Assembly: GCA_001781335.1 (NCBI GenBank)
Contig: MFLL01000010.1
Coordinates: 1 to 52,679, forward strand
Length of the DNA: 52,679 nucleotides
Direction: 5' to 3'
Source: Candidatus Kaiserbacteria bacterium RIFCSPHIGHO2_02_FULL_55_25
Lineage (GTDB): Bacteria > Patescibacteriota > Minisyncoccia > Phycocordibacterales > UBA2100
Below, in pieces: positions 2,496 through 52,412 of this stretch. Under the pieces are notes generated by a model. It was not told where the DNA came from, did not search any database, and was given only the letters and a program-made list of their open reading frames with translations. The position numbers and the translations under genes were made by a program. Each line of letters opens with the position of its first letter. The stretch's first letter is position 1.

Positions 2496-3380
2496 ATGGA
2501 ATGGGCGCACGAACATCCGTATCTGTCGGCCCTGATTGCAGCGGGTGCATTCCTCGTGTTCGGCGTACTCGTGGTGGGATACCGCGCAGCACAACCGCAG
2601 GGCGGCAGCCTGCAGGTGTGGGGAGGCGGACCAAACGCGCTTTTAAATCCGACATCATATGAACCCGGAGCTACGGTGGGCATACAAACGGATATCATCG
2701 GTGGCGGGAACGCACCGGTATTCAGCGTATTGCGACCGCAACAGCAAATCGAAGCGCAAAATGAGGCGGGCGGGGGATTTGATATTTCTCTGTTCATCGC
2801 GGGACTTTCTCAACCGAGCACGGATACCGCGACGACGCCTGTTTCGAGCCAGCCGGATTTGAGTCTCGCATATTCTTTCATTCCCAGCGGGCTTGTCGCG
2901 ACGACGACACCCGGACCGAAGCGAGGTGTACTGCAGGAATCGCTCTATCAGTACGGCAACGACGTGGGGTCGTACATATCCACGTACGAGAGCGCGAGCG
3001 TAAATACCGGACAGGTGCTCACGGACCAAGTGCACGACCGGCGGAACGCGCAAAAAGCGCAGGCGGTACGCAATATAGGGACGGCACTGCAAACGGCCGG
3101 AAAGAATCTACAGGGAATCGAAGCCGTCCCCTCGATAGTGTCTTCGGCGCACGTAGCGCTCGCGGAGAGTTACATAGAAGCCGGTATCAGTCTCTCCAAA
3201 GTGCCCGACGCACAGAGCGACGGGGACTTCATCGCCGCGATACAGGACTACAATACCGCCGCCGAACAGCTCGGGCGCAATTATGTCGCGCTCGCGAACG
3301 TGTTTGCGGGTACGGGCGTGAGATTCTCGCCGCAGGACCCGGGGTCGGTGTTTATTTTCTCGGGGGGCAGTGGACTCTAG
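2496..3380 (+). CDS. hypothetical N-terminally membrane-anchored protein (first gene of the T4SS-like operon)
   Basis: One TM helix (LSALIAAGAFLVFGVLVVGY) followed by a Ser/Thr/Gln-rich then helical ectodomain. TATACT 11 nt upstream of the ATG. Confidence 0.6.
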   Translation: MEWAHEHPYLSALIAAGAFLVFGVLVVGYRAAQPQGGSLQVWGGGPNALLNPTSYEPGATVGIQTDIIGGGNAPVFSVLRPQQQIEAQNEAGGGFDISLFIAGLSQPSTDTATTPVSSQPDLSLAYSFIPSGLVATTTPGPKRGVLQESLYQYGNDVGSYISTYESASVNTGQVLTDQVHDRRNAQKAQAVRNIGTALQTAGKNLQGIEAVPSIVSSAHVALAESYIEAGISLSKVPDAQSDGDFIAAIQDYNTAAEQLGRNYVALANVFAGTGVRFSPQDPGSVFIFSGGSGL

Positions 3381-3398
3381 AGTGTTTTCCCGCCCCGT

Positions 3399-4268
3399 GT
3401 GGGCAAAGACACGAAAACGCCTTATCTCACGGGGTATACTTGTAGTGTGCGCGTACTGCAACAAATATTCCGGTCTCCGCTGGGGGTGACTGCCGCACTT
3501 TCCGTGGCGCTCCTGCTCGGCGTCTCGGTCTCCCAGATTTCCTCACTTATGCAACAAAACCAACAGGTGCTCGCATTTGTCGCCACGCCGGCGGCACAAA
3601 CAGCTACGGCTGAAGGCGCCGACTGGCAACAGGAAATGACCCTACTCGGACTGAATACCGAAAATAATCCGGCTGCGACTTCAACCGCCGACAGTATCGC
3701 GATGATTGGCCAGATAGTCATCGCCGAAATGGTGGGACAGTACGCGGGCATGCAGGATAGGGGGTCGTATACCGCAGAGACCGTGCAAAACGCATCCGCA
3801 AACATCGCCGCGAATCTCCGCGCGAATATTTTGTACAAAACATACTCGACGACCGACTTCAAAACAGACACGGATATTTCCTACGACCGCATGCTTACGT
3901 ACCGGAGTGACTTGCGTGCGGCACTCGCGCCGCTTTTGCAAAATACCGGCTCCGAATTGGAACTGTACGGCAAATATATTGAAACGGCCGACGCCAACTA
4001 TCTCGGCCAACTCTCCGCGGCCGCCGGCAATTATCGCGCGGCGGCGGAGCAGGCCGCGGCGCTCACCATCCCGCGCGATGCGGTAAATTATCACAAAGAC
4101 ATTTTGAACGCGATGGAACAATTCTCCGCGACGCTCGACAAAATGGCGACGCACGCCACCGACCCGCTCGCCTCCGCCGCGCTCTTGCGTACGTTCAACC
4201 AAGCCGAGACAACTATGTACACTTCGTTCAACGCGCTCTCGCGCTACTACTCGCAGAAAACGCCATGA
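3399..4268 (+). CDS. hypothetical membrane-anchored protein, same architecture as the preceding gene
   Basis: GTG start in the track. TM helix (VTAALSVALLLGVSVSQI), then an Ala/Thr/Tyr-rich helical domain. The 3' end overlaps the next gene by 4 nt. The exact start is uncertain. Confidence 0.55.
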   Translation: MGKDTKTPYLTGYTCSVRVLQQIFRSPLGVTAALSVALLLGVSVSQISSLMQQNQQVLAFVATPAAQTATAEGADWQQEMTLLGLNTENNPAATSTADSIAMIGQIVIAEMVGQYAGMQDRGSYTAETVQNASANIAANLRANILYKTYSTTDFKTDTDISYDRMLTYRSDLRAALAPLLQNTGSELELYGKYIETADANYLGQLSAAAGNYRAAAEQAAALTIPRDAVNYHKDILNAMEQFSATLDKMATHATDPLASAALLRTFNQAETTMYTSFNALSRYYSQKTP

Positions 4269-5905
4269 GAATTCACAGCGGCATACTCATAGCACTGTTT
4301 GTCCTCGCACCTGCGCTCGCGTTTGCGCAATCCGACAGTCCCCCTTCATTTTCCCGGGAAGGAGTGTTCGGTTGCAGTCAGACCGGCTCATATTCCATGT
4401 CGGTCGGCGCGCTCTCGGCGGTGGGCGGGGCGTTCGTGCCGGTCAACGACGCCGCGGTGACGCTCAATACCGGCTATCTCGTCTACAAAGAGTGCGTCCT
4501 GCGCGGCATCGTGGACAGAATGCGCGAAAACGCGACCGCAAACCTCCAGCGCCAAATCCTCGTCGCCTACCAGCGCGGCCGCAACGGCCAGCCGCTCTTT
4601 TCGCAGAGTATTCCGCTCGAATCGCGTGCCGTTAGCGACAAAGCCGTTCTCGACTACACTCAGAGCGGTCAGTTCAACGGTCTCAACCCCGCACTCCGGC
4701 AGGCGGTTTCGCGCGCAGTAGTGCAAAACTATATGGCCGCGCGCAACAAACCCAACGCGGCGTACGGCTGTTCGTACGCGGGGAACCTCAACTCGGTCTA
4801 CAGCGGCAATCCCGACGGCGGCGCGTGGGCGGGACTCTCCGCTCTGCAAAATCCGGCGTGTGACCCGATATTTGCATACAACATTGCGAACGAGCAGGTT
4901 CTCGGCTCTGCCGCATACGCGGTGAACAACATGCTCACGCGCCTTGAGTGGGACAACGGCAATTACCCTGTGATGGGCACCGATGCCGACGGCAACCCCA
5001 TCGTGCTCACCCCCGGCTCTATCGTCGGCGCGAACGCTCTGCAGGCACTACAAACCGGATTCGACCAGCTCGCGCGCGCCAACGATATCGACCAGATGGT
5101 GGGCGCGCTGTTCGCCGGCATCACGTCGCAGGTCATCGGAGACAACAAGGGTCTTGTCGGACTCACCAAGCCGACCGGCGGCATCCCGAGCTACCTCGAT
5201 CAGGTGGTGTCGCAGTCCGCGCAGGGGCTCCGCAACAGCGCCATCAATGCGGGCATCGGCATACTCGTGGCACAGCAAAAAATCGAAAATCAGATACTCG
5301 GTTTTGCAAAAATGATTCTCGACAAAATCACGGCAATCGCGCGAGCGCTCCAGACGAAAGAAAACGCCTGCTGGGCGCTTGTCGTCAGCAGTGTCTGCAC
5401 GTCTTCGCTCGCCGCCGACAACACGTGCACGGACGACACCGGTAGCAAGTACAAAGTAGCGACATCAACCTTCCAGTTCACGCAGAAGGCGCTGGATGCC
5501 TCGCAAGTCGCCGCCTACCAGCGGGTACATCAGCAGGTCGCGAGCTCCTCGCAAATCATTCTTACGCAAATCGGCGTGCTCATCGCCCAACTCACCGACA
5601 CATCTTCGTACACCGCCCAGCTCGCCGCGCTTCAGGCGCTCGACAGGCTCGCAGGGAGGCTCGCGAACGACGGCATCGTGTTCCACACGCCGCAGGATGT
5701 GACCAACGAGCAGAGCGCGGCCGGTACGCTTGTGGGGCAAAACGGCGGCTCGGGCACGCTCGACCAGCTCGTCACCGACACCGTGGCGGCGTGGGCGGAT
5801 TCGACCGTCACCAAGACCGGTTGGTGCAATGTCACCAGAGCGCCGGTCGTGGATGCGTGGAAAGACTGCTGGAGACAGGGAAGCACCTCATGCCTATGGC
5901 CGTAA
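4265..5905 (+). CDS. hypothetical secreted protein, 546 aa
   Basis: Signal peptide MRIHSGILIALFVLAPALAFAQ, multiple conserved-looking Cys. ATGA overlap with the upstream gene. Confidence 0.65.
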   Translation: MRIHSGILIALFVLAPALAFAQSDSPPSFSREGVFGCSQTGSYSMSVGALSAVGGAFVPVNDAAVTLNTGYLVYKECVLRGIVDRMRENATANLQRQILVAYQRGRNGQPLFSQSIPLESRAVSDKAVLDYTQSGQFNGLNPALRQAVSRAVVQNYMAARNKPNAAYGCSYAGNLNSVYSGNPDGGAWAGLSALQNPACDPIFAYNIANEQVLGSAAYAVNNMLTRLEWDNGNYPVMGTDADGNPIVLTPGSIVGANALQALQTGFDQLARANDIDQMVGALFAGITSQVIGDNKGLVGLTKPTGGIPSYLDQVVSQSAQGLRNSAINAGIGILVAQQKIENQILGFAKMILDKITAIARALQTKENACWALVVSSVCTSSLAADNTCTDDTGSKYKVATSTFQFTQKALDASQVAAYQRVHQQVASSSQIILTQIGVLIAQLTDTSSYTAQLAALQALDRLAGRLANDGIVFHTPQDVTNEQSAAGTLVGQNGGSGTLDQLVTDTVAAWADSTVTKTGWCNVTRAPVVDAWKDCWRQGSTSCLWP

Positions 5906-8370
5906 CTATGATCAAGACCTCCTTCTCGGCATCAAGTCTCGTGTTCCTCTTAGTCACCTTGGCGACTCTCATACCTACGCCCGCAGATGCTCTAACTCAA
6001 ATGAGTTGCGACCCTCCGATGACCTTGCAGCGAGTGCAAGGAAGCATGTGGGTAGGATATTCGTGGACATGGCAATGTGTAGACACCAACTCCGGACAGA
6101 CTGCCGCCGCAAAGGAAAAAGAGGTGTCGACGTGCGATCCGGGCTTTCGTCAGGAGAGAGGAACGATGCAAGGGGAACTTTCAGAGGGCAATCTTTGTGT
6201 TCCAGAATCAACCCCCCAGAGTACTGACGCGAAAGCAGTTTACACGGGACCTACTAGTTGCTCTGCAACGTGGGACAAAATGACAAACCCCGGAACCTGT
6301 CTATTCCGCGCGGCAATGGCCGGGCTCGGTTCAGTGCTCATTACGCTCACCGCTTGGCTATTGAAAGTTGTTGGCCTTCTTTTTAACTACCTGTTGTGGT
6401 ACACCGTTATCGCCTTTGGCGACTCAACCAACGGCTTTTTGACTAAAGACATCCTCACGGGGATCAACACCACTTGGACCGTCTTCAGGGACATCGCAAA
6501 TATTCTCATCATCGGCCTCTTTACCTTTATCGCCATCTCTACCATTCTCGGCAATCACGAATTCGGTGCCAAGAAGATGCTTGCGAAAGCGCTTATCATT
6601 GCAGTCCTCATCAACTTCAGCCTCCTTTTCACCAAGATGATAATCGATGTTTCCAACTTCACCGCCTATCAGTTTTATGCGGCCGCCGGCGGTACTATCG
6701 GCGTAACTAAGCCTGCAGACAGCGGAGGAACACTTTCATTCAAACAGGACGGTATAGGTGGGACGTTTATCAAATTTCTTGGAGTTACAAGCATAAGCGA
6801 TACGTTTGATAAACTTAAAAGCGGCGCGGATGCACAAGACAGCGGCTGGATTACTCTTCTGCACGGGCTTTTTGGAGCAACGATGCTACTTGCTACAGCG
6901 CTTGTCTTTCTTTACGGCAGTTTTTTGCTCGTGAGCCGCGCGATACTTATTGTCTTTCTGCTCATCACGTCGTCGCTCGCATTCGCGGCGTACCTTCTGC
7001 CGAAAAGTATTCAGGGCTCATACGGATGGAGCACGTGGTGGAACTCGCTGGTGAAAACCGCAGTGTTCGCACCGCTTCTCATGATGTTTCTTTGGGCTAC
7101 CATAAATCTTGCAACGAAATTGAACCCGGGCGGCAAAGGAACATTAGGGGCACTCATGACCGACCCGACCAACGGAGGAAATCTTAGCGCACTCTTCGGC
7201 TACATCATTATTCTCGGACTTCTTTTCGCCTCATTCCAAATCTCGAGCAGTTTTTCCTCAAAAATCGCGGGCTTCAATCTGGCCGCGCTCATACCCGCGA
7301 TTGGTCTCGGAGCAGTTGCGGGAATCGGTGGATTCCTTGGCCGGCAAGCAATCGGCCGACCCGCTATGGCTATTGGCGAAAGGCTTCAGAATCGATCGGG
7401 AGCAACAAGCAATGCATTTGCCAAGCGCATGTATGATCTTGGTGCGCAGGGCTTTAAGTCGGTTTCCAAGCGGGACTTTAACGCCATGCGAACCGGCTTG
7501 GGCACTGCGGTAGCGGGCACGGCAGGAAAGAAGGTGGATGAGCTGGTGGGCAAGGCCGTCGGAGGCTTCGAAGGCTCGCAAAAGGCGTTCTTGAAGCGCA
7601 CGGCAGAGATGGCGCGTCGCACGAAACCCGACGACGAGACAAAAGAAAAGGGGCAGCAGGACGCGAGAGACAAGGTCACTAGAACAGATATTGATCAGGC
7701 TTACAAGGCCGCTATGGCAGAAAACGAACACCGCGATCGCGCTGCCGAGCATGAGGACGTTAAAGAGGCTCTCCAGCAATACAAGGAAACTAGCGAGCAG
7801 GCGATTAACGAAATGCGGAAGGGTGTTTCCGAAGCGTTTGAACGAACGCAGAGAAGCCCCGGCGACCAAGCAGCTCAAGCCGATCTTCAGCGGATGAAGC
7901 AGCGAGTGCAGACGGCAGAAGCTGAGCAAGAGCGCCAAATTACAGAACAATCGGAGCACATACGAGGTGCGCAGAAATTGGTCGCGAAAGCCGCTCGCAA
8001 AATAGAGGGCGTCGACAAAGATCTTAATGAGGTCGCCAAAGACGCCGGATACAATCGGTGGGCGTTCCAAACTGCGGGCGATAGGGCGAAAGATCTGGCA
8101 GGAGGATTTTCGGCACTTCTCTACGCAAGCGGAGTCAGCAAGAAAAGTAGAGAAAAGCTGGCGGCAAAAGCGGCGAAAGAGGCCGGGAAGCAAGAGCGTC
8201 AGCAGAATTTCAAAGAAAAGTACGGGGACGCACTTAAAGAGATGATGAAAGAGGACGAACATGCAAAAGAAACGCCGAGAGCGGCGGCACCGGCGGCTCG
8301 CGCCGAGCCGGCTCGTAGTGACCACCCTGCAGAACCGTCAGGCGGTGGAGATCACGGAGAACGTCATTAG
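5890..8370 (+). CDS. VirB6/TrbL-like polytopic membrane protein with Cys-rich ectodomain and long K/E/A/Q-rich C-terminal tail
   Basis: Signal/TM at MIKTSFSASSLVFLLVTLATLIPTPADA. Cys-rich ~130 aa, then about 7-8 hydrophobic helices (aa ~190-560 of the track ORF), then ~270 aa of a charged coiled-coil-like tail. In-frame ATGs at 5890, 5896 and 5908, the last one just after the upstream stop at 5903-5905. The track start at 5791 overlaps the upstream gene and is unlikely. Confidence 0.55.
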   Translation: MPMAVTMIKTSFSASSLVFLLVTLATLIPTPADALTQMSCDPPMTLQRVQGSMWVGYSWTWQCVDTNSGQTAAAKEKEVSTCDPGFRQERGTMQGELSEGNLCVPESTPQSTDAKAVYTGPTSCSATWDKMTNPGTCLFRAAMAGLGSVLITLTAWLLKVVGLLFNYLLWYTVIAFGDSTNGFLTKDILTGINTTWTVFRDIANILIIGLFTFIAISTILGNHEFGAKKMLAKALIIAVLINFSLLFTKMIIDVSNFTAYQFYAAAGGTIGVTKPADSGGTLSFKQDGIGGTFIKFLGVTSISDTFDKLKSGADAQDSGWITLLHGLFGATMLLATALVFLYGSFLLVSRAILIVFLLITSSLAFAAYLLPKSIQGSYGWSTWWNSLVKTAVFAPLLMMFLWATINLATKLNPGGKGTLGALMTDPTNGGNLSALFGYIIILGLLFASFQISSSFSSKIAGFNLAALIPAIGLGAVAGIGGFLGRQAIGRPAMAIGERLQNRSGATSNAFAKRMYDLGAQGFKSVSKRDFNAMRTGLGTAVAGTAGKKVDELVGKAVGGFEGSQKAFLKRTAEMARRTKPDDETKEKGQQDARDKVTRTDIDQAYKAAMAENEHRDRAAEHEDVKEALQQYKETSEQAINEMRKGVSEAFERTQRSPGDQAAQADLQRMKQRVQTAEAEQERQITEQSEHIRGAQKLVAKAARKIEGVDKDLNEVAKDAGYNRWAFQTAGDRAKDLAGGFSALLYASGVSKKSREKLAAKAAKEAGKQERQQNFKEKYGDALKEMMKEDEHAKETPRAAAPAARAEPARSDHPAEPSGGGDHGERH

Positions 8371-8386
8371 TCGGTAGATACATTAT

Positions 8387-8983
8387 ATGAGCGACGACAA
8401 AGAATTTGACGACTTGATAAAAGAGCGATTCAAAGAATTGCCCCGCGTTGTGCAGGAGGCCATTGTCTCCGCTGACGTCGAGAAACATTTGCGAGAGTTG
8501 GCAGAAACAAACAAACTACATCTCGACCAATGGACGTCGCTTGAGGACGTGGTGCAAATGACCCTGCTGGGACTTGAGGACTCCGGCGAGCTCATGCAGA
8601 ACATTCGAGATAGGGTTCACGTACCAGAGGAGACGGCACAAACTCTAGCCAAGAGCGTCTCCGAGATCGTCTTCGAGCCCATCAGACAGGAGTTGGAGCG
8701 GCAACTTGAGCACCCCGATGCGGTCGCGAAGGCGACGAGCGGGGTAGAGGACATGCGCGCGAGCATCCTTGCCGACGCGTCAGAGCATTCCGCCCCTGCT
8801 CCCGCCGCCGTAGCTACGCCTGCAATTCCACCTACACCTGCTATTGCGCCCGCCACACCGCCCGCGCCGGCACCAACAGTGAAGGTGGAGCGCGCATCGT
8901 CGGCCCCGCCATCATACGTCTCCGGCCCAAGCCACGAGCGCAAAGCGATAGAAGGCGACCCGTACAGAGAGCAGCTCGACTAG
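8387..8983 (+). CDS. hypothetical acidic protein with Pro/Ala-rich C-terminus
   Basis: 198-aa ORF in operon orientation. No TM segment. C-terminal APAPAAVATPAIPPTPAIAPATPPAPAP low-complexity tract. Confidence 0.55.
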   Translation: MSDDKEFDDLIKERFKELPRVVQEAIVSADVEKHLRELAETNKLHLDQWTSLEDVVQMTLLGLEDSGELMQNIRDRVHVPEETAQTLAKSVSEIVFEPIRQELERQLEHPDAVAKATSGVEDMRASILADASEHSAPAPAAVATPAIPPTPAIAPATPPAPAPTVKVERASSAPPSYVSGPSHERKAIEGDPYREQLD

Positions 8984-8995
8984 TCGAGTTGCTCA

Positions 8996-9442
8996 GCTTC
9001 TAGGTTCTAGCGGCTAGGTTCTAGGTATGAATCCGGAAATCGAATCACACAAAGATCTGCTGGTTTGGCAAAAAGCAGTCACGCTCTCCATGGCAGTCTA
9101 TGCGATGACAGAAAAGTTTCCCGCGAGGGAAATGTACTCGCTTTCGTCGCAAATGCGTCGTGCGGTCGTATCCATACCTTCAAACATCGCGGAAGGGAAA
9201 GCGCGTCGCACGCGAGCCGACTATGTGCATTTTCTCCACATGGCATACGGTTCAGCATCCGAACTGGAAACCCAACTATTGATAGCGGCACGGCTCGGTT
9301 TCTGTTCCGAAAAAGTCTATGAAGAAACCAATTCACTGCTCGCAGAAGTGAGTAAGATGTTGCGTGCTATCATAAATAAACTAGCGACGGCTCGTTAGCT
9401 TGCTGTGTTCTGCCTAGAAGCTAGCCGCTAGTCCCTAGCACC
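8996..9442. repeat. pair of ~30-bp imperfect inverted repeats (8996-9025 and 9413-9442) bracketing the four-helix-bundle gene
   Basis: Left arm gcttctaggttctagcggctaggttctagg. Reverse complement of the right arm ggtgctagggactagcggctagcttctagg. I count 25/30 matching positions, including the core CTAGCGGCTAG. Confidence 0.75.
9027..9398 (+). CDS. four-helix-bundle protein (23S rRNA intervening-sequence protein family)
   Basis: LLVWQKA..., FPAREMYSLSSQMRRAVVSIPSNIAEG, GSASELETQLLIA: the signature motifs of this family, at ~123 aa. Confidence 0.85.
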   Translation: MNPEIESHKDLLVWQKAVTLSMAVYAMTEKFPAREMYSLSSQMRRAVVSIPSNIAEGKARRTRADYVHFLHMAYGSASELETQLLIAARLGFCSEKVYEETNSLLAEVSKMLRAIINKLATAR

Positions 9443-9448
9443 TATACT

Positions 9449-9955
9449 ATGCAATTCCAAGTTCCTCAATTCATAGAGGTGGAAGACAAAATTTTCGGGC
9501 CACTGACCTTCAGGCAATTCGTTTTTATCGCCGGAGGCTTCGGAATGGCCTATGTGCTATGGAGAATGTTGCCCATCTACCTCGCGGCGCCACTCATCCT
9601 CGGGGTAGGAGCACTTGCGGCGGCGCTTGCATTCTTCCAGTTCAACGGGCGACCGTTTATCCTCGCGCTCGAGAACGGCTTTTACTACATAATCCGGTCA
9701 AAACTGTACCTGTGGAACAACGCCAACAAGAAGCGGGCCGCGGTGAAGACAGCCGCGACGACCGCGCAGAATGACGTATACATCCCGAAAATTTCCGACA
9801 GTAAACTGCACGAACTCGCGTGGAGCCTCGACATCAAAGAGCGCATAGCCGCCGGCACGGCAGGGGACGACGAGCGGGGCGGCGCGCTCACCGGTGTGCG
9901 CACGCCAAAAGAAATCCTTTCGCACATGGGCGGGCGGGTAGCCAACAGCCAGTAG
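9449..9955 (+). CDS. PrgI-family (VirB3-like) T4SS membrane protein
   Basis: N-terminus MQFQVPQFIEVEDKIFGPLTFRQFVFIAGGFGMAYVLW followed by a second TM helix, the typical PrgI layout. Confidence 0.75.
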   Translation: MQFQVPQFIEVEDKIFGPLTFRQFVFIAGGFGMAYVLWRMLPIYLAAPLILGVGALAAALAFFQFNGRPFILALENGFYYIIRSKLYLWNNANKKRAAVKTAATTAQNDVYIPKISDSKLHELAWSLDIKERIAAGTAGDDERGGALTGVRTPKEILSHMGGRVANSQ

Positions 9956-9960
9956 TCTTT

Positions 9961-10053
9961 AGAACGTAGTGCGTAGAAAACACAATGCAAACACAAGATA
10001 CAATTCAAGGCATCCTCGCTACGTACTACGTACTAACTACTACGAACTAATGT
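9961..10053 (+). repeat. 93-nt intergenic element, copy A (degenerate hairpin), filling the gap between PrgI-like stop and next ATG
   Basis: Aligns without indels to 10725-10817; I count 10 substitutions in 93 nt. ACGTAG/CTACGT-rich arms flank a conserved AT-rich 45-nt centre. Confidence 0.85.
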
Positions 10054-10719
10054 ATGGCGGAAACACCAATCATGACGCCGCGCGCAAGCGCCAAGTCGAC
10101 ACAAGACTTCGTGCCGATTTCCCAAGTACGCGATGGTGTTGTGCTCCTCAAAGACGGCGGACTACGGGCGGTCCTGCTCGCATCAAGCATCAACTTCGCA
10201 CTCAAAAGCGAAGACGAGCAGACCGCGTTTATCGTGCAATTCCAGAACTTTCTCAACTCTCTCGATTTTTCGTTGCAGATATTCGTGCAGTCGCGCATGC
10301 TCGACATCCGTCCGTACGTTGCGACACTCGAGGCCGCGTACAAGGAGCAACTCGACGACCTCATGCGCATCCAAATCCGTGAATACATCGAGTTCATCAA
10401 AAGCTTCACCGAAGCCGCCAACATCATGACGAAAAACTTCTTCGTTGTTGTGCCGTATTCGCCCGCGGTCATCACGAAACGCGGCGGCGCGAGCGCGCTG
10501 AACCCGTTCGGCAAAAAACAGACGGCGAGCGAGGCCGACCACTCGTTCGAAGAACAAGTGAGCCAGCTGGAGCAGCGCATTTCTATCGTCCAGCAGGGCC
10601 TCGTGCGTACCGGTGTGCGCACCGTGCAGCTCGGCACCGAGGAGGCGATAGAGTTGCTCTACAAAATGTTCAACCCCGGCGAAGAGGGCAAGCCGATGCC
10701 CGTTCAGGGCAGTCAGTAG
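10054..10719 (+). CDS. hypothetical protein resembling the N-terminal ~200 aa of Gram-positive-type VirB4 (TrsE/Orf16-like) ATPases
   Basis: STQDFVPISQVRDGVVLLKDGGLRAVLLASSINFALKSEDEQTAFIVQFQNFLNSLDFSLQIFVQS matches my recollection of the N-terminus of long VirB4 homologues. No search was run. Confidence 0.5.
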   Translation: MAETPIMTPRASAKSTQDFVPISQVRDGVVLLKDGGLRAVLLASSINFALKSEDEQTAFIVQFQNFLNSLDFSLQIFVQSRMLDIRPYVATLEAAYKEQLDDLMRIQIREYIEFIKSFTEAANIMTKNFFVVVPYSPAVITKRGGASALNPFGKKQTASEADHSFEEQVSQLEQRISIVQQGLVRTGVRTVQLGTEEAIELLYKMFNPGEEGKPMPVQGSQ

Positions 10720-10724
10720 CTGAC

Positions 10725-10817
10725 AGAACGTAGTACGTAGAAAATACAATGCAAACACAAGATACAATTCAGGGCATCCTCACTACGTTCTACGTACTAC
10801 GTTCTACGTACTAATCT
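10725..10817 (+). repeat. 93-nt intergenic element, copy B, with a perfect 18-bp inverted repeat (10725-10742 / 10788-10805) and 45-nt loop
   Basis: agaacgtagtacgtagaa ... ttctacgtactacgttct are exact reverse complements. The loop carries two TACAAT boxes. The element ends at the ATG of the VirB4 gene. Confidence 0.9.
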
Positions 10818-12737
10818 ATGAACCTTACCGACCTTCTTCCGTTCAAGAAAAAAGCCGCCGCGGGGCCGGATATTTTGCCGGTACTACCCGAAGAAATCTA
10901 CCAGACGGGGGTACTCGACCTGCAGGACGTCATCGCACCGCATGCGCTCAAGGTAAATTCTCGCGAACTCGACTTGGGCGAGAAAATCGCGCGCACTTTC
11001 TTCGTCATTTCATACCCGCGCTTTCTCACCACGGGATGGTTCGCCCCCATCATCAACATGGACAAGGTCATCGACATTTCCATCTTCGTCCATCCGATGG
11101 ACACCAACGAAATGCTCCGTAAGTTCCAGAAAAAAGTCGCCGAGGTGCAGAGCCAAATCTCGACGCGCGAGCAGAAGGGGATGGTCCGTGACCCGATGCT
11201 CGATACCGCATACTCCGACCTCGAGCAGTTGCGCGACAGCCTCCAGCAGGCGCAGGAACGCATCTTCGACGTCGGACTCTACCTCACCATCTACGGCAAC
11301 ACGCGCGAAGAGATAGACAAGGTGGAGAGCGACGTGCGCTCCATTCTCGAATCGCGCCTCGTGTACATCCGCCCCGCACTCTTCCAGCAGGAACAGGGTT
11401 TCCGCTCCGTCCTCCCGCTGTGCACCGACGAGCTCGACGTGCACACAAAACTCAATTCCGCGCCGCTCTCATCCATCTTCCCGTTCATCTCGTTCGACCT
11501 CACCTCCGACCGCGGCATTCTCTACGGCATCAACCGTCACAATTCATCTCTTATTCTCTTCGACCGCTTCTCGCTCGAAAACTACAACTCCGTGACGTTT
11601 GCAAAATCCGGCGCCGGCAAAAGCTACACAACAAAACTTGAGATATTGCGCTCTCTCATGTTCGACACCGAGGTCATTGTCATCGACCCTGAGCGCGAAT
11701 ACGAATATCTCGCGGAGACCGTCGGCGGGCGCTACTTCAATATCTCCCTCTCCTCGGAGCACCACATTAATCCTTTTGACCTGCCCATCCCGCGCGAAGA
11801 TGAAAATCCGAGCGACGTGCTTCGCAACAACATCATCACGCTCGTCGGGCTCTTCCGCATCATGCTCGGCGGGCTCACGCCGGAGGAAGACGCCGTCATT
11901 GACAAGGCAATCACCGAAACCTACGCGCTCAAAGACATCACCTCGGATACGAATTTCGCACAGGTTGAGCCGCCGCTCCTCTCCGACTTCGAGCTCGTTC
12001 TATCCGGCATGGAGGGGAGCGAGTCGCTCGTGCAGCGTCTGTCCAAGTACACGAAGGGTACGTGGTCGGGATTCATGAACCGCCCGACGAACGTCGACAT
12101 GAATAAAAAGCTCGTCGTCTTCTCGGTGCGCGACATGGAAGACGACCTCAAACCGGTCGCGATGTACATAATCACGCACCACATCTGGAATCAGGTGCGC
12201 AAAGAGCTCCGCAAGCGCCTACTCGTCATCGACGAAGCCTGGTGGATGATGCGCTCCGAAGACACCGCGTCGTTCCTTTTCTCCATCGCAAAACGCGGCC
12301 GCAAATACTACCTTGGTATCTCGACCATCACACAGGACGTGTCCGACTTCCTGAACTCCCCGTACGGCATTCCTATGATAACCAACTCGTCCATTCAGCT
12401 CCTGCTACGCCAATCACCGACCTCCGTCGACCTCGTACAAAGCACGTTCAAGCTCTCCGACGAAGAGAAGTACCTTCTGCTCGAGAGCGACGTGGGGGAG
12501 GGTATCTTCTTTGCCGGTCTAAAACACGTTGCGCTCAAAGTCATCGCCTCATATACGGAAGATCAGATCATTACCTCGGACCCGTCGCAAATTCTCGCAA
12601 TCAAAAAGGCGAAACAGGAGCTCGACGCGTCGAATGACGCGCCCCGGCCCGTTGCCATGCCCGCCGCGCACGCACCGGGCACCGACACCGCACCAGCGCC
12701 GCAGGCTCCGTCCAGTAACGCCCTACGGGAGGTATGA
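10818..12737 (+). CDS. virB4: VirB4/TrsE-family T4SS ATPase
   Basis: Walker A FAKSGAGKSYT, Walker B RLLVIDEAWWMM, and ISTITQD... motifs. YPRFLTTGWFAPII...IDISIFVHP region typical of VirB4. Confidence 0.85.
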   Translation: MNLTDLLPFKKKAAAGPDILPVLPEEIYQTGVLDLQDVIAPHALKVNSRELDLGEKIARTFFVISYPRFLTTGWFAPIINMDKVIDISIFVHPMDTNEMLRKFQKKVAEVQSQISTREQKGMVRDPMLDTAYSDLEQLRDSLQQAQERIFDVGLYLTIYGNTREEIDKVESDVRSILESRLVYIRPALFQQEQGFRSVLPLCTDELDVHTKLNSAPLSSIFPFISFDLTSDRGILYGINRHNSSLILFDRFSLENYNSVTFAKSGAGKSYTTKLEILRSLMFDTEVIVIDPEREYEYLAETVGGRYFNISLSSEHHINPFDLPIPREDENPSDVLRNNIITLVGLFRIMLGGLTPEEDAVIDKAITETYALKDITSDTNFAQVEPPLLSDFELVLSGMEGSESLVQRLSKYTKGTWSGFMNRPTNVDMNKKLVVFSVRDMEDDLKPVAMYIITHHIWNQVRKELRKRLLVIDEAWWMMRSEDTASFLFSIAKRGRKYYLGISTITQDVSDFLNSPYGIPMITNSSIQLLLRQSPTSVDLVQSTFKLSDEEKYLLLESDVGEGIFFAGLKHVALKVIASYTEDQIITSDPSQILAIKKAKQELDASNDAPRPVAMPAAHAPGTDTAPAPQAPSSNALREV

Positions 12738-17611: not shown

Positions 17612-17720
17612 AAAAAGAGTCAGAATCGTTTTCCGCCGTGTTCGCAGCGCGACGGCGCGAGATTCAGGGACCTTTCAGCAGAAAGGTACCCGACGGCGGA
17701 AAGCGATTCTGACTCTTTTT
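17612..17720. repeat. 28-bp inverted repeat (17612-17639 / 17693-17720, 1 mismatch) with nested inner hairpin, in the rpmH<>dnaA intergenic region
   Basis: aaaaagagtcagaatcgttttccgccgt versus the reverse complement of acggcggaaagcgattctgactcttttt. The inner segment ggacctttcagcagaaaggtacc is itself near-palindromic. Confidence 0.8.
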
Positions 17721-24843: not shown

Positions 24844-25010
24844 GCTCAAAGTATATCCCAAAGAAAAAGGCGGCGGATGTGTTACGGCCCGTCGGATACT
24901 CGGAGTCGGAACACCCCATCGGCTACAGCTCGAAGTCTTTCGGCACGTATAAGCCATGTTCCGTCGCCTATTGGTAACACTGCCTTCTTGCCCGCCAACC
25001 CAAAATCCCT

Positions 25011-25034
25011 ATACTTAGGTCTATGACTAAGTAT
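25011..25034. promoter_or_regulatory. operator-like palindrome ATACTTAGGTC-TAT-GACTAAGTAT overlapping the ArsR-family gene start codon
   Basis: Shares the half-site AATACTTAGGT with the perfect palindrome at 25425-25456. Confidence 0.5.
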
Positions 25035-25436
25035 TGGAACCCTCGTCGGATTAAACGCATCAAAGACCGGAAACTACGCGCGGCAAAACGCGCCTCAGAA
25101 AATGCCGCGATTCTTAGAGAACGTGCTCGTTCTTATACACCGGGTGATGCGCGGAAGAACGCCGGACTCATGCTAGACGCACTCGGTTTGCCGTTGAGAC
25201 GCCGGATGCTTGCACGACTAAGGCGAGAGGGCACCATGTCGGTTTCCAAGTTGGTCGAACCTTTCCGGATTACGCTTCCATCAGCACTCGAACATGTCCG
25301 CGTTCTCGAACGATCCGGTATCATTACGACGCATAAACACGGCCGTGTCAGGCTTTGCGTCTACCGGCCGGAAGCCCTAAAAGAACTCGCTCGCGAGCTC
25401 ACTTCTCGGGGATTAGAATATAATCCCAATACTTAG
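25023..25436 (+). CDS. ArsR/SmtB-family winged-helix transcriptional regulator
   Basis: LDALGLPLRRRMLARLRREGTMSVSKLVEPFRITLPSALEHVRVLERSGIITTHKHGRVRLC, an ArsR HTH pattern. Confidence 0.8.
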   Translation: MTKYWNPRRIKRIKDRKLRAAKRASENAAILRERARSYTPGDARKNAGLMLDALGLPLRRRMLARLRREGTMSVSKLVEPFRITLPSALEHVRVLERSGIITTHKHGRVRLCVYRPEALKELARELTSRGLEYNPNT

Positions 25437-25456
25437 GTTTGTACCTAAGTATTGGG
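25425..25456. promoter_or_regulatory. perfect 14+14 palindrome CCCAATACTTAGGT-TTGT-ACCTAAGTATTGGG (operator and/or terminator)
   Basis: Read directly from the sequence. Overlaps the ArsR stop codon, ~100 nt upstream of the VIT1-family gene. Followed by tandem TTTTAGGGAA x2 (25472-25492). Confidence 0.6.
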
Positions 25457-26929: not shown

Positions 26930-27463
26930 CTAGGCGGCGTTGGTGTAGACGTTTTCCACATCGTCATGCGCGTCGATTTTTTCGAGAACTTCCATGAGCT
27001 TCGCACTATCTGTGTCGGAGAGCGGTACGGTCGTCTTGGGCACGTAGCCCTCCTCGATACTTTTTTCAAATGCCCACATGGCCGAGCCCGGCGCGGCGAG
27101 TGTGAGACCGTTTTCAGTAAGTAAGTGTTTTATTTCCTGCGCCGTTCTGTTGCGGCTATCAGTGAGTGCTTCAATGAGAATGGCCGCGCCACCCGGCCCG
27201 TATGTTTCGTAGGTGATTGATTCGAGCGATGCCGCATCGGCCGAAATGCCTTTTGCGACGGCGCGCTCGATAGTGTCTTTGGGCATGTTGGTTTTCTTGG
27301 CGGTCTCGATGATGGCGCGAAGTCCGGGAAGGGTGATGTCTCCGCCGGCTTTCTTGCTCTCTACTGCGATGCGCCGCCCGAGTTTGCCCCAGAGATTGCT
27401 CTTGGCCGCGTCGGCCGCACCTTTCTGTCGTTTGATTTGCGCCCATTTGTTGTGACCTGACAT
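26930..27463 (-). CDS. yebC: YebC/PmpR-family protein, short (177 aa) variant
   Basis: MSGHNKWAQIKRQKGAADAAKS...YETYGPGGAAILIEALTDSRNRTAQEIK...DDVENVYTN. Confidence 0.88.
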   Translation of the reverse strand: MSGHNKWAQIKRQKGAADAAKSNLWGKLGRRIAVESKKAGGDITLPGLRAIIETAKKTNMPKDTIERAVAKGISADAASLESITYETYGPGGAAILIEALTDSRNRTAQEIKHLLTENGLTLAAPGSAMWAFEKSIEEGYVPKTTVPLSDTDSAKLMEVLEKIDAHDDVENVYTNAA

Positions 27464-27505
27464 TTGAACAGTTTATAGTTTTTAGTTGATAGTGGATAGG
27501 GGATG

Positions 27506-27541
27506 TACAAAACGAATCAGCGGCTCCGTGAAGCCGCTGAT
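27506..27541 (-). terminator. intrinsic terminator of the 27558..27950 gene
   Basis: Stem atcagcggct/agccgctgat with a 6-nt loop, followed on the minus strand by ttcgttttgt. Confidence 0.65.
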
Positions 27542-38963: not shown

Positions 38964-39080
38964 TCAAGCGATTGTTTCCAACATCACTTCATCGTTGAGG
39001 TCCACCACGCGGGAGAGTTCGTCGAATGATGTCACGCCCTGCAATATTTTCACCGCGCCGTCTTGCGCCATGCGGCGGAT
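38964..39080 (-). pseudogene. orphan copy of the last 38 codons plus stop of the GspE/PilB ATPase gene
   Basis: The minus-strand translation IRRMAQDGAVKILQGVTSFDELSRVVDLNDEVMLETIA* is identical to the C-terminus of 39803..41494. 12 third-position differences and a different stop codon (TGA vs TAG). No upstream reading-frame continuity. Confidence 0.85.
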
Positions 39081-39133: not shown

Positions 39134-39469
39134 TCAGGAAACATGCACTTTCGCGCCCACGGCAGCGAGAATGCGTGATGCGGTTTTAAGCGTGGGGCTT
39201 GATTCGCCAGTCTCAAACCGGGCAATGGCCGCCTGCTGCATGTTGGCGCGTTTGGCGATTTGCGCCTGCGTGAGCTTCTTTTCAATACGCTTGCGGATAA
39301 TGGCAAATCGCACCGCCCGCTCAAGGGCTCCCGCTTCGTAGAGCGTGCGGGTTTCTTTGTCTTTCAGGAGCTCGCGCCTCATGTGCTCAAACGGTACGTA
39401 TCCGAGTTTCTTCGCTCGGGCCAGAAACGTTTTTTGTTCCTTGGTCGATCTTTTTCCCATGCGTACCAT
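39134..39469 (-). CDS. XRE-family HTH antitoxin (HigA-like)
   Basis: IRKRIEKKLTQAQIAKRANMQQAAIARFETGESSPTLKTASRILAAVG HTH_3 pattern. ATG at 39469; the track start at 39496 is a TTG overlapping the toxin. Confidence 0.8.
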   Translation of the reverse strand: MVRMGKRSTKEQKTFLARAKKLGYVPFEHMRRELLKDKETRTLYEAGALERAVRFAIIRKRIEKKLTQAQIAKRANMQQAAIARFETGESSPTLKTASRILAAVGAKVHVS

Positions 39470-39488
39470 AATAACGAATACGTTATAA

Positions 39489-39797
39489 TTACGCAAGCTC
39501 CCCGAATCTTCTGTGCGCTGTTCGCAGTTCTCGCGGTGGTATTTTGTTCGATTTCTTTACAAAGCCGTTTACTATGTACACCGTGTCTCCCGAAAAGCCA
39601 TATAACAAGCGGACTTGGACAGAACCTTGAATGCGCAATTCAAACAGGTTAGCCGCAACTTTTTTACTGTCGGGCGGCGGGAGCAGTCGCCCAAACATTT
39701 CTAAGGCATCAAGTTGCTCCGTAGCTTTACTTTTCAGATCGGGCGGAAGTGTTTTTAGGAATTTTCTCACTGAATGATGGATACTCAGCGACGTCAT
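39489..39797 (-). CDS. RelE/HigB-superfamily toxin (phage Gp49-like)
   Basis: ...FELRIQGSVQVRLLYGFSGDTVYIVNGFVKKSNKIPPRELRTA, typical of the Gp49/HigB family. The toxin lies upstream of the HTH antitoxin. Confidence 0.75.
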   Translation of the reverse strand: MTSLSIHHSVRKFLKTLPPDLKSKATEQLDALEMFGRLLPPPDSKKVAANLFELRIQGSVQVRLLYGFSGDTVYIVNGFVKKSNKIPPRELRTAHRRFGELA

Positions 39798-39802
39798 AGT
39801 AG

Positions 39803-41494
39803 CTACGCAATCGTCTCCAACATCACTTCATCATTGAGGTCCACAACGCGCGAGAGTTCGTCGAATGATGTCACGCCCTGCAATATTTTCACCGCACCAT
39901 CCTGTGCCATACGGCGGATGTTCTGGTGTTTGGCGGCGTGCCAGATGTCGCGCTCGGACGAGGTGTGGCGCACGCACTCTTCGATTTCTCTGTCCATCAA
40001 AATCACTTCCACCACGGCGATACGGCCCTTGTAGCCGAGGCCGCCGCACTTTTCACAACCCTTCGGCACCCACATCTGCTCGCGATTCGCCGGCAGGTCT
40101 TCGGTGTGCGGGACGTTTTTGAGCAAGAAATTCATTTTCTCGAGCTCTTTGCCGGTAATCGGCGCGGCTTGCCGGCAATTGGTGCATAGTTTTCGCACAA
40201 GACGTTGTGCCATCGCGCATGTCACCGCCGCGCCGAGCACTTCGGCGGAGACACCCATGTCGATGAGGCGGGGGAACGTACCGCCGGCGTCGTTGGTGTG
40301 CAGTGTGGAGAAGACGAGGTGGCCCGTGAGCGAGGCGTGCACGGCGGTCGCCGCCACTTCTGCATCGCGGATTTCGCCGACCATTATCACGTCGGGGTCT
40401 TGGCGCAAGGTAGAGCGCAATCCTTGCGCGAATGTGTAGTCTTTTGAAACTTGGGTCTGCACGATACCGGGGAGGTGATACTCGACAGGGTCTTCGATGG
40501 TGACGATTTTAATTTCCGGTTTGTGCACTTTGCGCAAGAACGCATAGAGCGTCGTCGTCTTACCGCTCCCCGTGGGCCCCGTGTTCAAAATCATGCCGTT
40601 GGGCTTCGCGATTTCGCGGTCGAAAATATCCATCAGGTACTTGTCGAAGCCGAGCGCTTCCATCGGGAGTGCGATGGTGGTCGGGTCCAAGAGACGCATG
40701 ACGATGGTTTCCGCATACGAGCCGGGAAGGACCGAGGTGCGTATTTCGACTTCCTTGCCGCCGACGACGATGGAGAAGCGGCCGTCCTGTGCCGCGTTTT
40801 TTATGTTGAGCTTGAGACCCGACAAGAGTTTGAGACGCGAGGATATGAGCGCATAGGTCGGTGTGTCGAAGACAAGAACCTCGACAAGCACGCCGTCGAG
40901 ACGGTAGCGCATGCGCACGCCTGCCTCTTCGGGCTCGAGGTGCACGTCGGAGGCGCCGAGGCTAAGCGCTCCGGCCATAATGATTTCCAAGACGCGCGAA
41001 ATGCGATGCGTATCTTTGCTCTTGGTGTGTGAATTGATTTCCACGCGCACGTCGTCGAGGGTTTTGAGCTTTTGCAACATCTGCTGAATGGTGTCGTTGG
41101 AGAGCGTGAGAATACCGGCTTCCGTCTCGGTCGCGTATGAAATATCGTGGAAGCGGTCCCACGCATGTTCGAGTGAGGCCTGCGAGACGATAAACCGCCG
41201 CGGTTCGTAGCCGAGGTGCTCGAGGTCTTTGAGTATCTCCAGTGCGTCGGCCCGCTCGGGTGCGCGCATTCCCACGAAGAGCAGTTTGTTCACTTTGTGG
41301 AACGGTGCCACCTCGGCCGCGCGCGCCTGTGCTTCGGGCACAAGGCGAAGCGCGTCGGTGTCAATGGACTTGTTGGTGAGGTCGACGTACTCGACGCCGT
41401 ACTTACCGGCAAGCATCGCCGCGAGCTGCTCCTCCTCTTTGGCACGAAGCTCACGCAGACGCTCCTCCTGTTTTTTCTCGTTGAACTGCGTCAT
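39803..41494 (-). CDS. GspE/PilB-family type II secretion / type IV pilus assembly ATPase
   Basis: Starts MTQFNEKKQEERLREL at 41494. Walker A GPTGSGKTTT, Asp box, Walker B VIMVGEIRD, His box. Tetracysteine CTNC...CEKC. The track ORF to 41935 is a spurious extension. Confidence 0.92.
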   Translation of the reverse strand: MTQFNEKKQEERLRELRAKEEEQLAAMLAGKYGVEYVDLTNKSIDTDALRLVPEAQARAAEVAPFHKVNKLLFVGMRAPERADALEILKDLEHLGYEPRRFIVSQASLEHAWDRFHDISYATETEAGILTLSNDTIQQMLQKLKTLDDVRVEINSHTKSKDTHRISRVLEIIMAGALSLGASDVHLEPEEAGVRMRYRLDGVLVEVLVFDTPTYALISSRLKLLSGLKLNIKNAAQDGRFSIVVGGKEVEIRTSVLPGSYAETIVMRLLDPTTIALPMEALGFDKYLMDIFDREIAKPNGMILNTGPTGSGKTTTLYAFLRKVHKPEIKIVTIEDPVEYHLPGIVQTQVSKDYTFAQGLRSTLRQDPDVIMVGEIRDAEVAATAVHASLTGHLVFSTLHTNDAGGTFPRLIDMGVSAEVLGAAVTCAMAQRLVRKLCTNCRQAAPITGKELEKMNFLLKNVPHTEDLPANREQMWVPKGCEKCGGLGYKGRIAVVEVILMDREIEECVRHTSSERDIWHAAKHQNIRRMAQDGAVKILQGVTSFDELSRVVDLNDEVMLETIA

Positions 41495-41519
41495 TGTCCT
41501 TGTATTGTACACTGGCGGG

Positions 41520-41969
41520 ATGCAGGAACGGACAGACTCGGGTGAGCAATTGAAATCGTTGGCGCAGAAATATGTGCATGCGCTGTCTCCGCGCTCACGT
41601 GCGACCATCGTTGCACTCTCCGGTGAGCTTGGGGCGGGGAAGACCACGTTCGTGCAGGGAGTTGCCGCGACGCTCGGCATACGTGAGACCGTCGCAAGTC
41701 CGACGTTTGTTATAGAGAAAGTGTATGAGTTGGAGGGACAAAAATGGGAACGGCTCATACATATAGACGCATACCGTCTGAAAAGTGCGCACGAGCTTGA
41801 GGTTCTCGGCTGGAAAGAAATCACCGCGGACTCCGCGAATCTCATACTGCTGGAGTGGCCGGAGAGGGTTCCGGAACTCATACCACGAGACGCTCTCCGC
41901 GTCTTCATAGACATCGAAAATGACGGGCGTATCATCTCAATTGACTATGGCGGCAAAGAAAAAAACTGA
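41520..41969 (+). CDS. tsaE: tRNA t6A37 biosynthesis protein TsaE
   Basis: IVALSGELGAGKTTFVQGVAATLGI...SPTFVIEKVY...HIDAYRL motifs. ATG at 41520. Confidence 0.88.
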   Translation: MQERTDSGEQLKSLAQKYVHALSPRSRATIVALSGELGAGKTTFVQGVAATLGIRETVASPTFVIEKVYELEGQKWERLIHIDAYRLKSAHELEVLGWKEITADSANLILLEWPERVPELIPRDALRVFIDIENDGRIISIDYGGKEKN

Positions 41970-52013: not shown

Positions 52014-52117
52014 AAGTATCAGGTATCAAGTGCCAAGTAGCAAACAAGTATCAATCCAAAGTATCAAAGACCGTACCACTGTTTACCTGATACTTGATAC
52101 CTGCGACTTGATACTTC
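52014..52117. promoter_or_regulatory. array of GTATCA / TGATAC 8-mer-type repeats in the ruvA<>rpsT divergent intergenic region
   Basis: GTATCA at 52016, 52023, 52048 and 52061. TGATAC at 52088, 52095 and 52109. Most occur within the longer AAGTATCA(A) / (T)TGATACTT context. Confidence 0.6.
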
Positions 52118-52145: not shown

Positions 52146-52412
52146 ATGGCAAATACATCTTCGGCAAAAAAGGCCCAGCGCGGGAGCGTACGCAAGTACG
52201 TTTTTAATGCGCGCCGCAAGAAGGCGATGAAGGATGCCGTCAAAGAGCTCGGCAAACTCATCACCAAGAAAAGCGCAAAAGATGCCGTTGCCGCTCTTCC
52301 GGAGCTCTACCAGACGATAGACAAGGCCGCCAAGAACGGCACCATCAAGAAGAACACCGCGGCCCGCATGAAGTCGCGTCTCACCAAGCGCGCCGCCGCG
52401 CTCGCCAAGTAG
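52146..52412 (+). CDS. rpsT: 30S ribosomal protein S20
   Basis: MANTSSAKKAQRGSVRKYVFNARRKKAMKDAVKE..., 88 aa and basic. Confidence 0.93.
   Translation: MANTSSAKKAQRGSVRKYVFNARRKKAMKDAVKELGKLITKKSAKDAVAALPELYQTIDKAAKNGTIKKNTAARMKSRLTKRAAALAK

Follow-up and report, generated by a model that had tools for sequence, protein, structure and literature searches.

Twin palindromic elements at gene junctions of a type IV secretion-like operon in a Kaiserbacteria genome and their apparent kinship with PF05635 cassettes

The DNA studied here, a 52,679-nt stretch of contig MFLL01000010.1 from Candidatus Kaiserbacteria bacterium RIFCSPHIGHO2_02_FULL_55_25 (assembly GCA_001781335.1; hereafter the window), carries a conserved chromosomal operon near dnaA that resembles a type IV secretion system (T4SS). 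Two consecutive gaps inside this operon, PrgI|TraC-like and TraC-like|VirB4-like, are filled by a pair of 93-nt palindromic elements, element A (9961-10053) and element B (10725-10817), respectively. Each copy replaces the 1-6-nt stop–start spacer of most Kaiserbacteria, has arms made of 7-nt units that fit flush against the upstream stop codon and the downstream start codon, and has the potential to form a long hairpin around a loop with a conserved core. Judged by the build of their arms, and by arm sequence shared with sister elements that lack an open reading frame (ORF), the twin elements appear to be related to cassettes that carry a PF05635 gene. The reading that we favour, with about even confidence, is that they are ORF-less palindromic junction elements, similar to the intervening sequences (IVSs) of 23S rRNA, which would be transcribed as part of the operon and would fold out, leaving stop and start next to each other.

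Twin inserts between stop and start codons

An earlier note on this DNA, made from the letters alone, had described two 93-nt copies that align without gaps and differ by 10 substitutions, and recomputation gave exactly this result (83 of 93 positions identical). With a repeat finder the similarity extends to 111 nt (9946-10056 versus 10710-10820, 86%), taking in the final codons and TAG of the upstream gene as well as the ATG of the downstream gene. A 25-nt core of the loop occurs twice in the window, against no occurrence expected from 100 shuffles. Because both elements are base-identical in more than ten independent assemblies, an assembly artefact is ruled out. The placement that the note had described also holds: each copy starts 5 nt past the TAG stop codon of one gene and ends at the ATG of the next (Table 1). 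The 111-nt direct repeats around the TraC-like gene could offer a route to its deletion. Across the pair, the left arm of element A (9953-9978) and the right arm of element B (10788-10813) are 85% complementary, and the right arm of A (10019-10048) and the left arm of B (10711-10740) 77%; the whole TraC-like gene is therefore bracketed in the manner of a cassette.

Copy B contains the perfect 18-bp inverted repeat around a 45-nt loop that had been reported for it. The stem of copy A, given earlier as about 11 bp, is longer, with 13 contiguous pairs (one of them G.U) and 8 outer pairs in two blocks. Both copies are predicted to fold into an interrupted hairpin of about 21 bp with a loop of 42-45 nt. 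Relative to dinucleotide shuffles, the minimum free energy (MFE) of the fold has a z-score of -5.2 in A and -3.1 in B. The left arm consists of an array (NNNNTAG)n that opens with the stop codon of the upstream gene itself, and the right arm is a complementary array (CTANNNN)n whose last unit lies flush with the ATG. The TAG triplets, 7 nt apart in the left arms, fall in all three frames in A (frames 2, 0, 1, 2) and in two frames in B, which agrees with the earlier remark on stops in several frames. The right arms are tandem 14-nt duplications. Seven period-7 runs were detected in the window, and each falls between the genes that a rough ORF-based call predicts. They are the two elements, the two arms of the PF05635 gene, one before a yebC-type gene and two upstream of rpsT.

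The loop holds a conserved core of 32 nt, in which the box GnTAYAAT is retained in all six core-type homologous elements from four lineages (the window, L010, L011 and L045). Two TACAAT boxes had been assigned to the loop; this is correct for copy B, whereas in copy A the first box reads CACAAT. Each element also contains a mini-ORF of 21 codons that ends TAA-NNT-ATG, in frame with the downstream gene. The arrangement in element A recurs in B, L010, L011 and L045, and the peptide is not conserved. Since the four closest homologues are equal in length and ungapped, the frame is inherited by descent, and we have downgraded the mini-ORF as independent evidence; that of element A is probably a by-product or a remnant. 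Its leaderless expression was likewise downgraded, as the TATAAT-N6-ATG arrangement occurs only in L011. Element B and its counterparts in L011 and L045 end (TAA or TGA)-TCT-ATG, as does the first junction of L017 and L018; copy A and both L010 copies, A' and B', end TAA-TGT/TTT-ATG.

Orthologous loci were collected via homologues of the TraC-like protein, and eight lineages were sampled without bias. In seven of them (L012, L014, L017, L018, L019, L030 and L037) the PrgI|TraC and TraC|VirB4 spacers are both 1-6 nt long, with junctions such as taaTatg, taaTCTatg and tagGTCTatg. The elements are thus insertions that are polymorphic among lineages, and filled and empty sites both exist: the seven lineages are empty at both gaps, and L011, the closest relative (95% amino-acid identity in TraC), is empty at the first and carries at the second an element of 124 nt with other arms, (GCTACAA)n. 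Homologous elements also occur in other lineages, a point on which the earlier proposal had in part been made to depend. An exact metagenome search with a 20-mer of the core found L010, an orthologous operon with a TraC 77% identical to that of the window, which has 93-nt elements in both gaps and a near-identical 32-nt core. Together with their stop and start codons, the L010 elements align with those of the window without gaps over 107 nt (nhmmer E about 1e-30). L010 comes from the same JGI sample as L015, whose TraC-like protein (221 aa, P0062) is the same as that of the Rifle metagenome-assembled genome (MAG) RIFCSPLOWO2_12_FULL_53_8, with a near-identical gene layout. L045 has a homologous element of 94 nt, in the second gap only (nhmmer E=4e-7). 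Compared with window positions 5027-11000, L024 is base-identical up to about 9500, the start of prgI, and beyond this point only about 65-78% identical; its contig is a recombinant or else a chimeric assembly. The two junction gaps of L024 are filled, by hairpin-type arrays of other 7-nt units, CTGACAG and CTAGNNN.

In the TraC tree, element-bearing lineages are scattered among empty ones, and the element subfamily does not follow the tree: L011, at 95% identity, has a different arm subfamily, whereas L010, at 77%, has that of the window. The 3' half of the loop is more alike between window copies A and B than between each of them and its positional counterpart in L010, which points to recent copying or gene conversion. 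We infer that the element was acquired either by insertion or by recombination between co-resident lineages, and that copy A is a recent copy, or a gene-conversion partner, of copy B. Despite unrelated arm sequences, seven of eight elements have hairpin potential, with z-scores against mononucleotide shuffles from -1.8 to -5.2; the second-gap stretch of L024 does not fold (z of +0.2).

An nhmmer search gave no further copy, either in the window or across 384 kb of loci from relatives. In a genome collection, the scan for the exact 20-mer gave nothing beyond one chance match in a Lachnospiraceae genome, four of the five matches in the metagenome scan were due to chance, with L010 as the sole real one, and the 20-mer had no match in viral contigs. 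Arm-pattern scans of the viral contigs gave only chance matches in coding sequence or unrelated (GCTACAA)n arrays in low-GC contigs. An origin from a plasmid or phage was rejected, given that blastn against plasmids and phages had no match to the elements and that the viral contigs held no relative of the TraC-like protein. In these viral contigs (L064-L071; IMG/VR, 33-40% GC) the 7-nt tandem arrays, (GCTACAA)n / (TCAAGCT)n, are long and in several cases lie right behind terminator-like hairpins; no inverted partner, which was not searched for, is visible in the printed stretches.

Relation to PF05635 cassettes

The gap 8984-9448 of the same operon holds a PF05635 gene between the arms of a 31-nt inverted repeat, whose 7-nt units contain CTAG. 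The earlier note had pointed to an analogy between these arms and the twin elements; the common 7-nt-unit build, together with arm sequence that sister ORF-less elements share with PF05635 cassettes, strengthens the analogy to what appears to be a family relationship. The cassette is itself polymorphic, being present in the window, L014 and L045 and absent in L011, L017-L019, L030 and L037, where an extended -10 box lies ahead of prgI. Between the last 60 nt of the L011 element and the flank on the right of the L014 cassette the local score is 36, against 7.5±1.4 in shuffles (z=20), and the second-gap element of L024 matches the window cassette arms with z=7.9 (left) and 4.9 (right); these values are somewhat inflated, because the shuffles were mononucleotide and the repeats are periodic. 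The ORF-bearing relatives of the elements carry PF05635 and not a transposase.

A cassette of this build is also found outside the T4SS-like operon. In the Zambryskibacteria locus L046 (1765-2395) a PF05635 gene is inserted inside the rpsP-khpA-trmD operon, with a TAG-unit array that runs from the upstream stop codon and two CTAG-unit arrays, one ending at the ATG of the PF05635 gene and the other at that of trmD; the 12-mer CTAGTCCCTAGC is common to this cassette and window positions 9413-9443. L014 carries, upstream of its cassette, a (GCTACAA)4-type palindrome (4822-4910; MFE -42 kcal/mol) that lies in frame in a variable Pro/Ala-rich linker of a 205-aa protein and encodes ...ATSYKLQATS...; for an empty-site comparison with L030, the region proved too divergent to be aligned. 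The idea that the PF05635 gene is itself mobile was downgraded, since the identical protein is found on 24 contigs, all from the same T4SS locus.

PF05635 is otherwise known mainly from rRNA. The IVSs of 23S rRNA are excised by RNase III and spread horizontally, and in rRNA genes of the candidate phyla radiation (CPR) both PF05635-bearing and short ORF-less insertions have been reported (PMC11270868; PMC4990558). Our literature search found no paper on such cassettes in mRNA operons, nor on miniature inverted-repeat transposable elements, or MITEs, in Patescibacteria. The features of the operon are listed in order in Table 1; downstream of the VirB4-like ATPase gene lie three more genes, the last of which encodes a T4SS pilin.

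Table 1. Features of the T4SS-like operon around the twin elements, in window coordinates
Feature	Position	Strand	Remarks
Unknown genes	2496-8370		
198-aa protein gene	8387-8983		
PF05635 cassette left arm: CTAGGTT CTAGCGG CTAGGTT CTAGG	8995-9025	+	31-nt inverted repeat, 84% complementary to 9413-9443; ends 1 nt before ATG 9027
PF05635 '23S rRNA intervening-sequence protein' gene (four-helix bundle, bAvd-like), between hairpin arms	9027-9398	+	Pfam E=7.6e-39
PF05635 cassette right arm: CCTAGAAG CTAGCCG CTAGTCC CTAGCAC CT	9413-9443	+	CTA-initial 7-nt units continue (CTATACT) to prgI ATG 9449
PrgI-family (VirB3-like) gene	9449-9955	+	Pfam PF12666, E=4e-12; TAG stop 9953-9955 is the first 7-nt unit of the element A left arm
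Element A left arm: TAG TCTTTAG AACGTAG TGCGTAG	9953-9976	+	TAG every 7 nt; its partner in the MFE fold is 10019-10042
Element A conserved A-rich core: GTAGAAAACACAATGCAAACACAAGATACAAT	9973-10004	+	-10-like TACAAT at 9999-10004; near-identical in copy B and both L010 copies
Element A mini-ORF (MQTQDTIQGILATYYVLTTTN*)	9985-10050	+	TAA 3 nt ahead of the downstream ATG and in its frame
Element A right arm: CTACGTA CTACGTA CTAACTA CTACGAA CTAATGT	10019-10053	+	Abuts ATG 10054
TraC-like gene (PF26593)	10054-10719	+	An element on each side; TAG stop 10717-10719 opens element B as its first unit
Element B left arm: TAG CTGACAG AACGTAG TACGTAG AA	10717-10742	+	Perfect 18-nt arm at 10725-10742
Element B conserved core	10737-10768	+	TACAAT at 10745-10750 and 10763-10768
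Element B mini-ORF (MQTQDTIQGILTTFYVLRSTY*)	10749-10814	+	Ends TAA-TCT-ATG
Element B right arm: CTACGTT CTACGTA CTACGTT CTACGTA CTAATCT	10783-10817	+	Perfect 18-nt arm at 10788-10805; abuts ATG 10818
VirB4-like ATPase gene	10818-12737	+	3' of element B; Pfam PF19044 and PF12846

Proposed role and competing explanations

In the reading that we favour, the element would be transcribed within the operon mRNA and would fold into its interrupted hairpin of about 21 bp. The paired arms would then extrude the insert, such that the upstream stop codon and the downstream start codon meet at the base of the helix, and the downstream gene, which lacks a Shine–Dalgarno (SD) sequence, could still be translated by termination-reinitiation as in the compact relatives. 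The TAG array would halt read-through ribosomes in every frame, the long stem would be a plausible substrate of RNase III by analogy with the rRNA IVS, and the GnTAYAAT box in the loop might serve as an additional, weak internal promoter. The earlier note had stressed that neither downstream gene has an SD sequence. This is true of both, yet it is a trait of the whole window, in which an SD-like motif precedes just 2 of 36 gene starts; the absence is therefore uninformative, as the genome hardly uses SD sequences. A TAnnnT box lies 5-16 nt upstream of 13 of the 36 starts (for example TATACT-N7-ATG and TATAAT-N6-ATG), which suggests widespread leaderless or very short-leader mRNAs in this genome.

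Several observations weigh against this account. The minus strand of the elements folds as well as the plus strand or better, so there is no strand-specific RNA signal, and covariation in the stem, a check named in the earlier note, showed no significant excess over shuffles among the four alignable homologues. A purely structural or selfish role does not account for the strong conservation of the loop's 5' half, 32 nt that are near-identical in a lineage whose TraC is only 77% identical. The window holds just two copies, both in one operon. As to kinship, no PF05635 cassette with CTACGTA-type arms, the subfamily of the window elements, was found, and the resemblance of ATGCAAACACAAGAT in the core to the 5' ends of some PF05635 genes (MQSHEDL / MQTHENL) is a short match and no proof of descent. 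Finally, co-transcription, the hairpin in vivo, cleavage by RNase III and coupling all have to be inferred.

Some known categories fit poorly. There is no plus-strand intrinsic terminator site at either element, with loops of 42-45 nt and no T-run. The Rfam check that the note had called for returned no RNA family for the elements: Rfam 15 matched only tRNA in the window, and the best matches in 8900-10900 had E-values of 5-8, far under the gathering thresholds. An integron attC site was considered by eye only and set aside, the flanking genes being fixed core genes in conserved order with no evident R'/R'' core sites.

The main rival is an internal promoter module, an idea that the earlier note had also raised. 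Here the selected part would be the -10 box GnTAYAAT of the loop, with transcripts that begin about 7 nt downstream of it and have a leader of about 40 nt consisting only of the right arm, which is unstructured and poor in G; the left arm would be an operator, a terminator-like partner or merely the other end of the insert. All six core-type elements keep the motif nGnTAYAAT unchanged, although the sequence around it has diverged heavily (AAGATACAAT in four, AAGATATAAT in L011 and ACGTTACAAT in L045), and the sequence is conserved upstream of the box and variable between lineages downstream of it. TAnnnT boxes also precede bona fide unit-head genes in the window, including a TACAAT upstream of yidC. 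Moreover, the extended -10 box that relatives have before prgI (TGnTATAAT or TGGTATACT) is displaced in the window by the PF05635 cassette, a loss for which promoters further downstream could compensate. However, the consensus scan found no sigma-70 -35/-10 pair (16-18-nt spacing) on either strand in 8300-11000. At the loop box, the T of a TG motif is missing, and so is the G/C-rich context of clear promoters in these lineages; other arm-type elements at these gaps (L024) do not have the box. A promoter would also leave the complementarity of the arms and their stop/start-flush placement unexplained, and we regard it as possible but doubtful. Promoter and junction element do not exclude each other; the Correia elements combine both properties (PMC2649163). 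These elements, from Neisseria, are at the same time the precedent for a classic MITE (PMC2649163), that is, a non-autonomous insert moved by a transposase in trans, dispersed in many copies, of which the operon pair would be incidental landings. Terminal inverted repeats are present (18 bp and perfect in B, 13+8 bp in A), the elements are small, at 93 nt, with only an unconserved 21-codon mini-ORF, and they are polymorphic for presence and absence. A GCTACAA-type relative occurs in three contexts: on the flanks of a PF05635 gene, at a junction without an ORF, and inside a coding sequence, in frame with it. TA at both boundaries of most copies (TAG ... TAA) would fit a TA target duplication, but it is not diagnostic because the arms themselves are built of TAG/CTA units. 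Against dispersal stand the mere two copies in 52.7 kb, both in one operon, the lack of an extra copy by nhmmer in 384 kb of related DNA, and 20-mer scans that gave only chance matches in genomes and only L010 in metagenomes. No transposase was found among the about 48 window proteins scanned. The MITE-like insertion of the earlier note thus holds as an insertion, as the 1-6-nt junctions of the relatives attest; as a MITE in the strict sense it is distinctly unlikely.

Could the elements be functionless? Small palindromes seeded at TAG..CTA stop–start junctions might lengthen in steps of 7 or 14 nt through replication slippage and subsequently disappear, with neither mobility nor role. Empty junctions such as tagGTCTatg are already TAG/CTA mini-palindromes, the 14-nt duplications of the right arms and the unit numbers that differ between lineages would be expected, and the arrays of the unrelated low-GC viral contigs described above would be of the same kind. 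What slippage cannot yield is a 32-nt non-repetitive core shared at two sites and by lineages of 77% TraC-like identity, nor the sequence match between ORF-less elements and the flanks of PF05635 cassettes, and we hold a by-product of this sort to be highly improbable. About as improbable is a protein-controlled switch, in which an oligomeric protein, perhaps the PF05635 protein, would bind UAG-N4 repeats in RNA or 7-bp heptads in DNA and open or close the hairpin, regulating the downstream T4SS genes. HutP binds UAG-N4-UAG-N4-UAG, and the omega repressor binds 7-bp heptads; the period of 7 with an invariant TAG is exact in the arms. The cassette arms with their 12-mer CTAGTCCCTAGC are kept between Kaiserbacteria and Zambryskibacteria even though the proteins are only about 60% identical, which suggests more than a pairing constraint. 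The window PF05635 protein scores 29.5 bits to bAvd (PF22296), under the 40-bit cut-off, and precomputed annotations give both families. A cassette is adjacent in three of five element-bearing loci versus one of seven element-free loci, counts too small for significance, and the elements of L010 and L011 have no adjacent cassette. No HutP, TRAP or RHH domain was present among the window proteins scanned, and the arm units differ among elements (CGTAG, CTAG, GTAGC and TCAG).

A bolder extension, which we consider very unlikely and offer by analogy with HutP and TRAP, whose sites are spaced triplets, is that PF05635 proteins and hairpins of 7-nt TAG/CTA units might form one system that is not limited to rRNA. 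The protein would read the periodic arms, and cassettes with their ORF-less derivatives would colonize stop–start junctions in conserved Parcubacteria operons. In these SD-poor, leaderless-type genomes they would punctuate polycistronic mRNAs as switches of processing or coupling under the control of the protein; the twin elements would be targets acting in trans.

PF05635 is a very widespread family, known mainly from hairpin-bounded rRNA inserts. If cassettes of the same build and their ORF-less miniatures also occupy stop–start junctions of conserved protein operons, the element would be a general RNA or DNA hairpin cassette rather than a curiosity of rRNA, with a biology testable through RNase III processing, binding of PF05635 to the arms and effects on translational coupling. 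It would also show how ultra-compact, SD-poor CPR genomes tolerate or exploit inserts of about 100 nt in tightly coupled operons. In practice, such elements split gene calls, and they mark recombination between co-resident lineages, which matters for the reading of MAGs.

Other repeats in the window and comparison with known systems

The window contains further repeats. A 34-nt hairpin-forming pair (ATACTTAGG..CCTAAGTAT; 25004-25037 and 25422-25455, 85% identical) flanks an ArsR/HTH_20 regulator gene (25023-25436), with one copy overlapping its start codon, and may be an autoregulatory operator or a terminator. Upstream of rpsT (52146-52412), positions 52014-52116 hold arrays of the 7-nt units GTATCAA and TTGATAC, direct and inverted, which are reminiscent of the heptad operators of omega-type repressors. 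A one-sided 7-nt array (27465-27506; minus strand CTATCCA CTATCAA CTAAAAA CTATAAA) immediately precedes the ATG of the YebC/TACO1-type gene (26930-27463), and no inverted partner was seen. A 113-nt direct repeat (38968-39080 and 39807-39919, 90% identical) brackets a Gp49/HigB-like and HTH_3 toxin–antitoxin pair (39134-39797, minus strand); its second copy is the 3' end of a PilB-like T2SSE ATPase gene (39803-41935, minus strand), which makes the first a duplicated piece of that gene. Between rpmH and dnaA, a 28-nt inverted repeat (17612-17639 and 17693-17720, 96% complementary, 53-nt spacer) may be related to the replication origin.

The IVS of 23S rRNA is one of the nearest known systems. 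Like it, the twin elements are inserts bounded by inverted repeats with a long stem; the loop either carries a PF05635 gene, as in the adjacent cassette, or is short and ORF-less, as in the twin elements; and the spread is sporadic, off phylogeny and in hosts with reduced genomes (PMC11270868; PMC4990558). Unlike an IVS, they lie at mRNA stop–start junctions between protein-coding genes rather than in helix 25 or 45 of 23S rRNA (Rfam found no rRNA in the window), their arms are 7-nt TAG/CTA units flush with stop and start, and excision by RNase III is only putative here. The Correia repeat-enclosed elements of Neisseria, together with ERIC, RUP and BOX, are likewise strain-polymorphic palindromic inserts of about 100-150 nt in transcribed intergenic regions, and such elements can give rise to promoters and, where they are co-transcribed, to mRNA hairpins sensitive to RNase III (PMC2649163, PMC2229807, PMC10969869). 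In contrast to all of these, the twin elements have no sequence similarity to them, have heptamer-array arms, are known as two copies in one operon with no demonstrable target duplication, and have ORF-bearing relatives with PF05635 instead of a transposase.

Rickettsia palindromic elements are palindromic repeats that are tolerated in unusual places. The GCTACAA-type relative of L014, in frame inside a coding sequence, is similar to them, whereas the twin elements are intergenic and rich in stop codons. The RNA sites of HutP and TRAP and the heptad operators of the omega repressor share with the elements short motifs at a strict period (UAG-N4 or 7-bp heptads, direct and inverted); the twin elements differ in that no cognate protein was found among the window proteins, the unit sequence varies, and the arrays stand a 45-nt loop apart instead of being contiguous. 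Taken together, the twin elements are best classed as an IVS- or MITE-like palindromic insert, made distinctive by heptamer-array arms, exact stop-to-start placement in conserved operons and apparent kinship with PF05635 cassettes.

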